Source: Heteronotia binoei (Eukaryota). From it: a stretch of 64,000 bases of DNA. The notes below the pieces were generated by a model that saw only the letters and a list, made by a program, of their open reading frames with translations, did not search any database and was not told where the DNA came from. Of the stretch, positions 58,989 to 64,000 are shown one piece after another; the stretch's first letter is position 1, and each line of letters opens with the position of its first letter. The DNA lies in NCBI RefSeq assembly GCF_032191835.1, contig NC_083223.1:20894001-20958000 (forward strand). Reading direction: 5' to 3'. A program made the position numbers and the translations under genes.

Positions 58989-59179
58989 GCACTGACTTGG
59001 ATAGCCCAGGCAAGCCCAATCTCGTCAAATCTTGGAAGCTAAGCAGGATCAACTCTGGCAAGTACTTCTGCGGGAAACCTCCTTGGAATACAAGGAATTG
59101 GGGACAGGCTTTATTCAGCCACCTCCCTGAATATCCCCCAGTAGGGGTCAGTCACCAGAGGTCGCCATGACTTCCAGAT
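58989..59179 (+). mobile_element. 5S rRNA-derived SINE whose tail is replaced by the DIRS end
   Basis: 5S head tctcgtcaaatcttggaagctaagcagg; body as in 11867-12085; ends ccatgacttccagat. Confidence 0.8.
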
Positions 59180-59667
59180 CGACCCTTGGCACTTACCGTG
59201 AGGGGTCCTTCTCCTAAGAGGACAGGAGGACATCTTGGGTGTTTTCCCACCGTCCAATCAGGGAGGCAGGAATCTAAAAGATCTTCCCCTTCCTGTGGCT
59301 GTGGGAACCACCCTTCAGTTCGGGTGACTCCGAGAAGCAGTACAAAAAACCTATATCTAGTAAAAAAAAGGAACTTCTCATGCAAACAGATAACGGTACG
59401 TCAGGTACAACTGCCTAAACGCGGCAGATTGAAATTCAAGGTAAACCCTAAAAAAGGAACGTAAGAGAGAAAAAACAGGCCCATGACAATGGACATAATT
59501 AGTAGAAAGTACCAGCAACAGGTGTAGAATAAAGGAGTAGGAACAGGCTGCCCAAGGTAGGGCGATAGATGGGAGGGCAAGATGTCCTCCTGTCCTCTTA
59601 GGAGAAGGACCCCTCACGGTAAGTGCCAAGGGTCGTTCTCCCTAAGAGGCGGAGGACATCTTGGGTG
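59180..59667 (-). repeat. DIRS right terminus: rE 59180-59208, right ITR from 59209, ICR about 59607-59667
   Basis: 59180-59237 is the exact reverse complement of 59578-59635 (58 bp); 59636-59667 repeats 59209-59241 imperfectly. Confidence 0.85.
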
Positions 59668-59704: not shown

Positions 59705-60793
59705 CTACTCGGGCAGGACGTGTTGAAGGATTCGCCTGCCGAAGGCGGCGTCTGCTGATGCGTAGCCATTCAGTTTATAGTGCCGGATAAAGGTGGATAT
59801 TGAAGACCACGTAGCTGCCTTGCACACCTCCTCGACAGAGGCGTTCTTATTGAAGGCCGCGTTGGCCGCTGAACTCCTGGTCGAATGTGCCGTGATTCCT
59901 TGTGGAACTTTGAGGTGCAACGCCTTGTATGCCTCCGTTATGCACTGCTTGATTGCATAACTGATGGCAGACTTGGACATCTTCTGTCCCATTCTGGGTT
60001 CTGCCACATTGACAAACATGGCGTCAGATTTACGAAATGTCTCAGTCCTAATCAAGTAGATCTTGAGTGCCCTGCGCACGTCCAAGGTATGCCACGTGCG
60101 CTCCTTCGGGTGCTTGGGATCTGGACAAAACGATGGTAGGTTGATCTCCTGGCTCTGGTGGAATCTAGAGGAAATCTTCGGGCGGAAAGTGGGATCCGGG
60201 TACAGAACGACCTTGTCCTTATGAAATACGCAAAGCTCCTTCCTGACCGACAGCGCACCGATTTCCGAGATCCTCCTGGCCGAGGTTATTGCCACCAGGA
60301 AAATCGTCTTCATGCGCATTATCCTTAATGGTACGGACATTAATGGTTCGAAGGGTGGATTGGTTAGAGCCGAGAGCACCGTGTTCAGTCGCCAAGTTGG
60401 AAAGCGATGCGTTTGTGGTGGAGAGCTCAAGGAAGCCCCTCTAAGGAACCGCCGAAGGTGTGGATGGGATGACAGATGTACGCCGTCTACCTGCTGGAGA
60501 ACTGATGCCAGGGCCGCGACCTGTCGTCTGAGAGTAGCAGGTTTCAGTCCGGATCGGAGGCCGTCTTGAAGAAATTGTAGGATCCTAGGGATCGTAGGCT
60601 GTAGCGGGTCCACCTGTTTTCTCCTACACCACCTGTGGAAGGCCTTCCAAGACGCGTTATAGATCCGTGTAGTGGATTCTCTTCTGGAAGCTAGAATTGT
60701 ATTGGTCACATCACTAGAATAGCCTAGGTCTAGTAGTGATCTCCTCTCAACCTCCACGCGGTCAGACTCAGCCATTCGGGATGGGGGTGCCAT
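59705..60793 (-). CDS. DIRS tyrosine recombinase domain, intact
   Basis: Catalytic set TSARRISEI (R), AHSTRS (HxxR), ATWSS (W) and FIRHY (Y); preceded by a core-binding domain TTRIYNASWKAFHRWC. Confidence 0.95.
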   Translation of the reverse strand: MAPPSRMAESDRVEVERRSLLDLGYSSDVTNTILASRRESTTRIYNASWKAFHRWCRRKQVDPLQPTIPRILQFLQDGLRSGLKPATLRRQVAALASVLQQVDGVHLSSHPHLRRFLRGASLSSPPQTHRFPTWRLNTVLSALTNPPFEPLMSVPLRIMRMKTIFLVAITSARRISEIGALSVRKELCVFHKDKVVLYPDPTFRPKISSRFHQSQEINLPSFCPDPKHPKERTWHTLDVRRALKIYLIRTETFRKSDAMFVNVAEPRMGQKMSKSAISYAIKQCITEAYKALHLKVPQGITAHSTRSSAANAAFNKNASVEEVCKAATWSSISTFIRHYKLNGYASADAAFGRRILQHVLPE

Positions 60794-62804
60794 ACTGGTC
60801 CCTGCAATAGCATGTCTGGTTGAACTGGTAGGTGGAGAGGTTCTTCTACCGACATCTGCTGAATTGAAGAAAACCAAGGACGACGAGGCCACCAGGGTGC
60901 AACTAGTATGACCTCGGCCCCCAGCCGGCTGATCTTCCTGAGCAACTTGGGAATGACCGGTATCGGGGGAAAGGCGTATAGGAGATCCTGCGGCCATGGA
61001 GATGTTAAGGCGTCTGTGGCCTCCGCCCGACTGTGGTAGTACCTCGTGAAGAACCGAGGGAGCTGGTGATTCTGGTGAGACGCAAAGAGATCCAGTGAAG
61101 GTGGGCCAAAATGGTTCACTATCTTCAGAAACAAGGCCCTGCTTGAATGCTCTCCCGACTGAGCCAGTCTGCTTGGACATTGCAGGCCCCCTTGATGTGC
61201 TCCGCTCTTATTGATTTTAAATGGAGTTCCGCCCATTCGAATAACTTCGCAGCCTCCTTGTAAAGGGAACTGGACCTGGACCCCCCTTGATTGTTTAAGT
61301 AGGCTTTCGCCGCTATATTGTCCGTTCGCACTAGCACGTGCTGTCCCGATACCTGGACCTGAAAGTAGAGTAGTGCCAATCGTATGGCCCGGAGCTCCAG
61401 AAGGTTGATTGGAAGAGTCGACTCCTTGGCTGACCACAGACCCTGTGTGGGAACCTCGTTGAGAGTAGCCCCCCAACCTGAGAGGCTGGCGTCTGAGAAC
61501 AGTTGTAGTTCTCTCTCTGCGGCGTAGACTCTTCCCTGCCGAAGGTTGGTGGTCTTGGTCCACCACAGAAGACTCTCCTTGACCTTCATCGGTACCGTCA
61601 GTGAGATGGCACATCTCTCCATGATGCGGAGTTGATAGGGTCGTAGAAACATTTGCAACTGTCTGGTGTGATGGCGACCCCACTGTAATGCCTCGAGATT
61701 CGAGATCAGGAGACCCATGAGCCTTGCTAGTGTCAGGAGCGTTGATGATGACCCCTGAATCACCTGCTGTACCAGTGTCTTGGTCTTTGAGATCTTGTCC
61801 TCCGGAAGGAATATGGAGTTCAAGTTGGTGTCGATTATCATGCCCAGATGTTCCAGTTTCTGGGTCGGATGTAACTGGCTTTTGGATAGGTTTATTAAGA
61901 ACCCGTGCTGTTGCAGGCAATTGACAGTGCGCTGGACGTCCAATTCCGCTTCCCTCCTCGACGAAGATCTTATCAACAGGTCGTCGAGATAGGGGTGCAC
62001 GTGGATTCCCCTCTGTCTGAGGTGTGCTATCGGATTCACCAGGACCTTGGTGAACACCCGCGGTGCCGTCGCCAGGCTGAATGGAAGGGCCCTGAATTGG
62101 TAGTGCGATCTGTTCACGCAAAAACGAAGAAATCTGCGATGCGCGGGTAGGATCGGAATGTGCAAATAAGCCTCCGTTAGATCCAGTGATGCCATGTAAT
62201 CTTGGTGATGTAGGGCTTCTGTAATGGACCTGATGGACTCCATTCTGAAGTGTCGAAGTTTGATGTTCTTGTTCAGGAATTTTAAGTCCAGGATCGCCCT
62301 CCAGTCCCCGTTCCTTTTGGGCACTGTGAAGAAGATCGAATAGACACCTTGACATCTCTGGTTCAAGGGAACTTGTTCTATAGCTGCGATCTCTAGGAGG
62401 TGGTCTATAGCCCTGAGGGTAACATTCCTCCGACCCGGGTTCGAGCGAAGAGGAGAAACGATAAAGCGGTCTGGGGGTGAGCGCTTGAATTCTATCGGGT
62501 AGCCCCGAGTAACAATGTCCAGAGTCCATGAGTCCGCCCGTGACTCCCTCCAGGCTTGATGGAAGTGAAGCAGGCGGCCCCCTACTGGGATGAGATCCCA
62601 GTCATGCCTTACTGGGCTTGGGGCCCTTCTCAAACTTGTCCGATCGGTTGGGCTGGTTCCTCTGGAATCGGGGGTTGGAGAAGTTCTTGCGGAAAGTTTG
62701 TTTGGATTGACTCCAGGATTGTCTTCTGTATTCTTGTTTAGGCTTGGAGAAGTTGGCTGTGTTACGAAAGGAACTAGAACCGAACCCCCGTGTGTCGGGG
62801 CGTC
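60730..62804 (-). pseudogene. DIRS Pol (RT-RNaseH-DNA adenine MTase), frameshifted at about 61137
   Basis: RT motifs LDLTEAYLHIP, LPFSL and YLDD. RNaseH motifs FSDAS, INLLELRAI, TDN and ADWLSR. MTase motifs DLFAS, YAFPP and LVAPWWP follow in the next frame. Confidence 0.92.
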
Positions 62805-63997
62805 TCAGAAACTTTGGCATTGCTTTCTTCTTGTCTCGCGTCTCCACCAGGATCTTCTCCAGTGAGTCCCCGAATAGCTTCTCTCCTTGAAAGGGATAGC
62901 CTGACACGATGGATTTTGAGTGATTGTCGGCTGGCCACGCTCTCAGCCATAAGCCCCTTCTCGCGACGGTGTTAGCTGCCATCGCCCTGGCTGAGAACGA
63001 AAGGGAGTCCAGTGAGGCGTCCGCTGAGAACTCTGCTGCCCGCATGAGTCTGCTGGTGCCCTCCAGAATCCTCTTATCCGTGTCTGGTACGAGTTGTGCT
63101 AAGCGTCTGACCCACACTATTGCTGCTCTAGCCACAATAGAAGTAGCAGTAGTTGCCTTGATGGCTCCTCCTCAAGGCCAGGTCGATTTTCCTGTCCCAA
63201 CTGTCGCGGACTGAACCCTGACCGTCCTCAGCTAGCAACCCCTGGGACTGTAGGGCTGCCACGGGAGCATTGACCAGGGGAACCTGTAACATATCGTTAG
63301 CAAAAGAGGGAAGCTCATACAATTTTTTGACAGAATTGGGAACCTGCTTGCTGACACTTGGTTTGGCCCATTCAGCTTTTAAATGACGTTCAAAGAACTC
63401 TGGGAAGGGGAAGACGTTGTCCGAAGCACGGTGCCTTGGGAAGAACTCTGCGTTTCCCTTGGGCTTATTTTTGGGGTTAGTCAGGGAACTTGTAGTTTCC
63501 TGTTCCTCAGGTGACCCCTGAAGGTCCAGTGCAGCTAGCACTTTGGGAAGAAGAGATTGAAACTCCTCTGGTTTGAAAAGGCGTGAGGAGGGTTCTGGCA
63601 CAGTAGTGCTCTCTATTTCTTCATCTGAGAGGAATTCACCCTCCTCCCGTTCTTCCCCATAAGACTCCTCCGATAGAGCTTCATATGGGAGCCTCTCACC
63701 CTCCTGGAAATCACTGGCTGAGGGACCCCTTGGAGCCTTAGAATGCCCCCTGGATCTCTTGGGAGATGGGGATCTGGAGGAGGAAGCATGGCTAGGGGAC
63801 CTTGGTCTCTTGTGGGTGGCTGCCATAACTGCCGCACCCACGGTCTGTTTTATGGAGTCTAAAAATTCTGCAAACAAAGAGGGCCCCATGGTGGGTACGT
63901 TACCAGAGCCCCTCTGGGGCTGGTAGGTCTGCGGAGCTTCCTGAGTTGGCTGGTCACTGAAGGCGCTGGGGTCTCCCGCCTGGAGATTGGCATCCAT
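62602..63997 (-). pseudogene. DIRS Gag-like ORF1, frameshifted at about 63162
   Basis: ORFs 63128-63997 and 62602-63135 join through AIKATTATSIVARAAIVW; basic C-terminal tail; position upstream of Pol. Confidence 0.8.
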
Positions 63998-64000
63998 CGT

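Follow-up and report, generated by a model that had tools for sequence, protein, structure and literature searches.

The retrotransposons Ty1 and Ty3 shift into the +1 frame at CUU_AGG_C and GCG_AGU_U, respectively. Another type of +1 signal, for which no RNA structure is needed, has been proven for UCC_UUU_CGU in influenza A PA-X (PMC3498833) and for UCC_UUU_CGG in human PLEKHM2 (PMC11451614). The first-pass annotation of the locus described here regarded UCC_UUU_CGU as established for PA-X, which is correct, and as reported also for ASXL1, a site that is a non-validated prediction (PMC11451614). In the literature searched, the translation of the overlapping Pol and recombinase ORFs of DIRS elements, which lack start codons, is unexplained; exact candidate sites can now be named. 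The available texts of PMC3266345, PMC7192593, PMC3783388, PMC6681497, PMC8547959, PMC9210276 and PMC5633606 describe the overlap only and offer no translation mechanism for it, and the term DIRS is absent from the available text of a large frameshifting review (PMC5009743). Frameshifting was proposed by Poulter and Butler 2015 for the recombinase ORF of Ngaro (quoted in PMC13003380). No description of a DIRS shift site was found in the literature searched, in agreement with the annotation, which knew of none; older reviews and Repbase, where a general proposal may exist, lay outside the scope of this search.

The window, a stretch of 64,000 nucleotides from the genome of Heteronotia binoei (NC_083223.1, positions 20,894,001 to 20,958,000), harbors an element with the DIRS1-like order Gag, reverse transcriptase (RT)-RNaseH-methyltransferase and tyrosine recombinase (Table 1). 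Pfam matches were obtained to LAP2alpha, RVT_1, RT_RNaseH, Dam and Phage_integrase, with RT_RNaseH and Dam below the curated cut-off. The structural features of DIRS1-like elements, i. e. inverted terminal repeats (ITRs) and an internal complementary region (ICR), are both present; in copies L031 and L042, the ITR arms measure 97 nt and those of the ICR 60-62 and 32-33 nt. By its domains as well as its ITRs and ICR, the element is thus a DIRS1-like retrotransposon, and its closest named homologs are found in geckos and other squamates. The window copy itself is dead. Compared to a sister copy, it has lost 20 nt near 63162 in Gag, which puts the two parts of Gag out of frame, and 19 nt near 61141 in the Pol/recombinase region, which truncates the Pol ORF; the Gag-frame ORF that starts behind the Gag stop continues into a methyltransferase remnant past this deletion. 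Complete sister copies encode a Gag of 569 residues, a Pol of 697 codons in the +1 frame that includes the methyltransferase, and the recombinase as one ORF of 971 codons in the Gag frame, beginning directly after the Gag stop. Small Gag-tail deletions at differing positions fuse Gag-frame sequence into the Pol frame in L110, L113 and L401, which is probably damage in dead copies.

Table 1. Features of the DIRS1-like element in the window. Window coordinates equal L031 coordinates + 58499.
Feature	Position	Strand	Remarks
Right ITR with extension	59176..59321		Left repeat lies just past the window end
ICR	59578..59667		L031 arms 1079-1140 and 1137-1168
Tyrosine recombinase ORF, 3' part including catalytic domain	59705..61207	-	Pfam Phage_integrase
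Gag-frame ORF from right behind the Gag stop (recombinase ORF, 5' part)	60730..62601	-	Overlaps entire Pol
Pol ORF, +1 frame (linker, RT, RNase H)	61125..62804	-	559 codons
GCA_TGA_CTG_G, Gag stop in leaky UGA-C context, candidate readthrough site	62598..62607	-	Invariant in 24/24 subfamily representatives
Gag 3' part (ORF1, LAP2alpha-type) with basic low-complexity tail	62602..63171	-	Terminates at TGA 62604-62602
TCC_TTT_CGT, predicted +1 shift site	62764..62772	-	Gag frame; conserved
TGA, last +1-frame stop ahead of the motif	62805..62807	-	Pol opens 12 codons upstream of UUU
Gag 5' part, extends past the window end	63128..64000	-	Out of frame with 3' part

The minus-strand sequence agrees with the first-pass annotation in that TCC_TTT_CGT lies in the ORF1 frame (GSSSFRN) and that the Pol frame is +1 to ORF1, opens directly after the upstream TGA and stays open through RT and RNase H. 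As had also been stated, the TTG at 62633 is in the Pol frame, and the first ATG, codon 188 (62243), lies inside RT, whose Pfam match begins at residue 161. The Pol frame is indeed open downstream of the motif, but this was discarded as support, since it follows from the amino acid make-up: the Gag tail is devoid of codons that create +1 stops, and only 0.14 such stops would be expected across 24 subfamilies, of which none was seen. The estimated one-copy chance of about 3e-4 was post hoc, and the real evidence comes from conservation across families.

An initial search of the Heteronotia binoei genome, which scored the best 40 of 341 candidates, listed 30 loci, of which 28 carry the exact nonamer and two are deleted at this position. 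More distant families were then added by family and protein searches, the counts of which are all lower bounds. After de-duplication of copies by sequence, 127 distinct junctions of the window clade could be aligned end to end. TTT_CG is retained in 110 of these, while 11 display CpG decay and six other damage; synonymous TTC_CGN or TTY_AGR variants do not occur at the motif in any of the 127. When these copies are clustered at 95% into 24 subfamilies with a mutual nucleotide identity of 75-100%, the Phe codon of the motif is TTT in all 24, whereas seven of nine other conserved Phe columns mix both codons, the two fixed ones are TTC, and Gag-only Phe usage amounts to 77 TTC versus 40 TTT. Analogously, the Ser codon is TCC in 23/23, while nine of ten other Ser columns vary. 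The alignment of copies that had been suggested as a check hence yields the motif in the ORF1 frame, with Ser and Phe codons that show no synonymous change; the third base of the Arg codon is its sole variable position, with CGU and CGG as the commonest forms. TTT_CGN is furthermore found 172-187 nt upstream of the RT start in 18/18 family representatives with RTs that are about 45-100% identical, although these are related and were selected after the junctions had been seen, with decayed motif-less copies omitted. Their E-site codon is TCC in 15 cases and otherwise CCC, CCG or CCA. A conserved Pol ATG upstream of RT, the alternative start that had been named in the annotation, was not found: upstream ATGs appear and vanish between families, and four invariant RT columns lie ahead of the first Pol ATG. 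Conserved structure 3' of the motif was not detected in 11 representatives (folding z between -2.2 and +0.2). Overall, the comparison of copies indicates that the motif is conserved at the nucleotide level well beyond chance.

A protein-level trace of the same shift may be visible in other vertebrates. Starting from 47 named vertebrate Pol proteins, the RT start could be located in 25, and 21 of these have a sufficient N-terminal extension. A +1 footprint of the form P-F-[VAGDE] is present in 14 of the 21 extensions (shuffle mean 3.3, maximum 9), a set that includes several gene models of one frog species and one footprint match in the Gag frame. In 11 of the 14, the footprint sits 58-70 residues before the RT start, the same distance as in the window element.

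More distant relatives were collected from metagenome and metagenome-assembled genome (MAG) contigs. This set comprises 103 loci with RTs of about 32-45% identity, 87 of which come with enough upstream DNA; Pol lies in the +1 frame in 58, in the -1 frame in 16, and is unclassified in 13. De-replication left 53 elements with Pol in +1 and 14 with Pol in -1. The methyltransferase was found in 45/46 and 11/11 of the long-enough elements, respectively. Viral contigs yielded no relative. The DIRS-like retrotransposons L291-L313 were encountered on contigs of several bacterial MAGs, which is probably eukaryotic contamination. Within the overlap, 18 of the 53 distant +1 elements have TTT_CG in the Gag frame, while only 3 and 4 have it in the two off frames; codon shuffling gives an expectation of 5.0 on average and 12 at most, and control pairs occur at chance level. 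Of 19 motif instances, 14 have NCN as their E-site codon. In the overlaps, the TTT:TTC ratio is 19:4 before CGN versus 51:62 before other codons (p=0.001). This bias is not present upstream of the overlap, yet the direct comparison of overlap and upstream Gag (19:4 versus 18:13) is not significant (p=0.077). In L233, the Pol frame begins merely 5 nt ahead of the motif. When the k-mers of these overlaps were ranked without bias, Gly, Arg and Lys codons dominated and the motif did not stand out; the same ranking recovered T_TTA_AAC in the -1 group. TTT_CG is missing from 35 of the 53 +1 elements, and 23 of the 53 possess neither TTT_CG nor an antizyme-like stop site. The idea that a Pol ATG is complementary to motif presence was rejected, as an ATG is found in 11/18 distant elements with and 18/35 without the motif. 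On this comparative basis, one large vertebrate DIRS clade likely uses the PA-X-type site as its Gag-Pol signal. The proposal of the first-pass annotation that the element makes Gag-Pol by such a shift is supported by the motif conservation, with a range that would cover the window clade and about one third of the distant +1 elements rather than DIRS elements in general.

The conservation could have other causes. For example, S-F-R in the Gag tail may be a protein motif whose codons are retained by descent, with Pol being entered elsewhere, for instance at the Gag stop through a +1 shift or reinitiation. F-R is indeed present in the tails of 11/12 Gag homologs from other vertebrates (scored by eye) and frequently repeated there; Phe-Arg pairs are generally frequent in basic Gag tails, and some families contain two or three TTT_CGN. 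Moreover, the Pol frame continues open past the Gag stop, and a sister clade without the motif seems to use this stop (see below). Against this speaks that codon fixation is particular to the motif pair: in contrast to 18/18 at the motif, TTT_CGN encodes 7/20 and TTC_AGR 9/20 of the remaining Phe-Arg pairs of these Gag regions, and synonymous sites are otherwise well mixed across the families. Entry at the Gag stop is disfavored by the preceding codon, which is GCA, GCC, GCG, GTG or CAA in the window clade, only GCG being part of the antizyme set. A mere protein motif with Pol entry elsewhere is hence regarded as decidedly unlikely.

Alternatively, a spliced or subgenomic RNA, or initiation at a non-AUG codon, could give rise to Pol and perhaps also to the recombinase, and the motif would belong to a splice or promoter signal. 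The motif is rich in pyrimidines, and a minor promoter is located at the gag-pol junction of Tca2, which illustrates that such junctions can behave non-canonically (PMC2194720). In L042 (~5990-5810, minus strand), a poly-A run is followed by a long pyrimidine tract that ends in AG just before the Gag ATG and is a possible 5' UTR intron acceptor. A pyrimidine tract at the motif would, however, tolerate TTC, the next AG follows 13-42 nt past the motif in all three phases (11 representatives), the GT of CGT is missing in the many CGG and CGA copies, and in distant elements the motif is frame-specific. RNA-seq reads, at 31-89 per raw run, were too sparse to weigh for or against splicing; they delivered two contig joints, neither of them with splice ends. 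This explanation appears very unlikely. Least credible, and in our view extremely unlikely, is a -2 slip or transcriptional slippage at the same site in place of a +1 ribosomal slip. Either event would lead into the same frame and cannot be told from a +1 slip by sequence alone; yet the T run comprises just 3 nt, no systematic indel was seen at the motif among the copies compared, and mass spectrometry showed +1 for PA-X (PMC3498833) and PLEKHM2 (PMC11451614). We consider it quite likely that this DIRS1-type family makes its RT as a Gag-Pol fusion by a +1 slip at TCC_TTT_CGN.

The second enzyme raises the same question on the other side of the Gag stop. An in-frame recombinase ORF, about 950-1050 codons long where the element is intact, follows right behind this single stop (window copy, L042, L374-L390, L211-L309). 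In the distant set, the frame past the Gag stop is open for at least 300 codons in 51/53 +1 elements, while it closes within 98 codons in 11/11 members of the -1 clade. Ahead of the first recombinase-frame ATG, no stop was seen in 45 elements, versus 272 expected if Pol alone constrained the sequence, albeit these elements were selected as intact for having a long ORF. This ATG is located at codon 7-506 and past codon 100 in 21 of the 45. UGA-C is the stop of Gag in 23/53 distant +1 elements versus 1/38 for Pol and 1/33 for the recombinase, and UAG-G terminates Gag in a further 9/53; UGAC is known to be leaky, and UAG-G represents the type III readthrough context (PMC3542737). Folding z values of -2 or below downstream of the Gag stop (19/53) are not clearly above those at control offsets (6-13). 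The CUG directly behind the Gag stop was rejected as a start codon, being replaced by CTA, CTT or CTC in other families. The simplest reading, which we deem probable from the sequence pattern, is that readthrough of the Gag UGA-CU would yield a Gag-recombinase fusion.

Other DIRS clades seem to employ different signals at the same junction. In a second clade of the Heteronotia binoei genome (L314-L343, L374-L393), TTT_CG is absent from 10/10 representatives, and Gag ends with CTT, GTT or TTT followed by TGA_CT in 49/50 loci (two places counted twice). This NTT_TGA_CT may constitute an antizyme/prfB-like shifty stop, in which case Pol would begin with F-D. A turtle Pol protein, P0044, carries F-D at the matching position. 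Among the distant elements without TTT_CG, Gag stops of the form TCC_TGA (L215, L232, L236), CCC_TAG/TGA (L239, L247, L288, L306) and AAA_TAG/TGA (L242, L280, L284, L286, L303) were observed. The latter are presumably Euplotes-like, but the AAA may merely reflect Lys-rich tails. UCC_UGA, UUU_UGA and GUU_UGA correspond to antizyme-type sites, and CUU_UGA is the prfB site, which is active in mammalian cells (PMC1874602). An antizyme-like final Gag codon is present in 12/35 distant +1 elements without the motif versus 1/18 with it. Mutual exclusion of motif and shifty stop was nevertheless dismissed, because the difference, which has a Fisher p=0.04 when rows are counted, loses significance once independent pairs are used, and the antizyme codon set was applied after the pattern had been noticed. 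In the elements with Pol in -1, T_TTA_AAC is found in phase in 6/14 (L223, L231, L235, L248, L249, L275), in two of them at most 4 nt from the Pol opening; these six have the methyltransferase and ITRs where long enough. The recombinase ORF of L235, L248 and L249 opens only close to the Pol end. Of the loci compared, L092 is broken, and three that lie outside the -1 clade (L220, L251, L279) are probably broken as well and misclassed. Since related -1 elements carry T_TTA_AAC, they appear to frameshift at the same junction. From these comparisons, the Gag/Pol junction appears to act as a recoding site throughout, with signals that change between clades.

Taken together, Gag would be translated from its first ATG. 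A few ribosomes may slip at UUU_C, where the P-site tRNA-Phe would re-pair from UUU to UUC, to form Gag...SSF-VTQ...Pol, i. e. a Gag-RT-RNaseH-methyltransferase; a rate of about 1% can be borrowed from PA-X and PLEKHM2. The remaining ribosomes could sometimes read through UGA-CU into Gag-recombinase. A single RNA would then give rise to much Gag and little of both enzymes, each fused to Gag. Whether long-overlap DIRS1-like elements in general obtain both enzymes via +1 shift and readthrough is an evenly balanced matter. Their +1 signal would be interchangeable between clades, being either an upstream UUU_CGN or an antizyme/prfB-type shifty stop, where shift and readthrough would be in competition for a single codon; in a further clade, -1 shifting at U_UUA_AAC would take its place. 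If true, the PA-X-type signal, for which two genes provide proof and a few viruses predicted cases, would extend to an abundant class of vertebrate transposons, and hundreds of natural variants could reveal which E-site and A-site codons are tolerated. Annotated gene models of reptiles and amphibians in which Gag is joined to RT would then be artefacts of an unrecognised frameshift.

Compared to known systems, the predicted site most closely resembles those of PA-X and PLEKHM2, with which it shares identical nonamers, a location close to where the +1 overlap has its 5' end, a preference for YCC in the E-site and the lack of conserved 3' structure, whereas the predicted DIRS product would serve a retrotransposon as its replication enzyme, in contrast to the accessory or regulatory products of those genes. 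A +1 fusion of a structural ORF with a polymerase at UUU_CGN has been predicted for amalgaviruses, fijiviruses and chronic bee paralysis virus (PMC3498833, PMC5052127), but these are RNA viruses with an RNA-dependent RNA polymerase, while DIRS is a chromosomal RT element. Ty1 and Ty3 likewise fuse Gag and Pol through a +1 shift (PMC3498833); as yeast LTR elements, they use other sites and encode a protease and a DDE integrase, both of which DIRS elements lack. With described DIRS1-like elements, the window element has in common three ORFs, RT-RNaseH-methyltransferase, recombinase, ITRs, ICR and the long Pol/recombinase overlap (PMC3266345, PMC9210276, PMC7192593, PMC5633606). At the Gag stop, CUU/GUU/UUU_UGA in the sister clade and UCC_UGA or CCC_UGA/UAG in others recall antizyme and prfB sites (PMC1874602), and the prevalence of UGA-C or UAG-G is reminiscent of type II and type III readthrough motifs (PMC3542737). 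Unlike in these cases, +1 shift and readthrough would both take place at one and the same DIRS stop, and the UGA_CUG of the window deviates from type II motifs in that it does not contain the exact CUA or CGG triplet and is not followed by clear 3' structure. The Gag/Pol junction of these elements would thus probably represent a known mechanism in a new element class, probably paired with readthrough.
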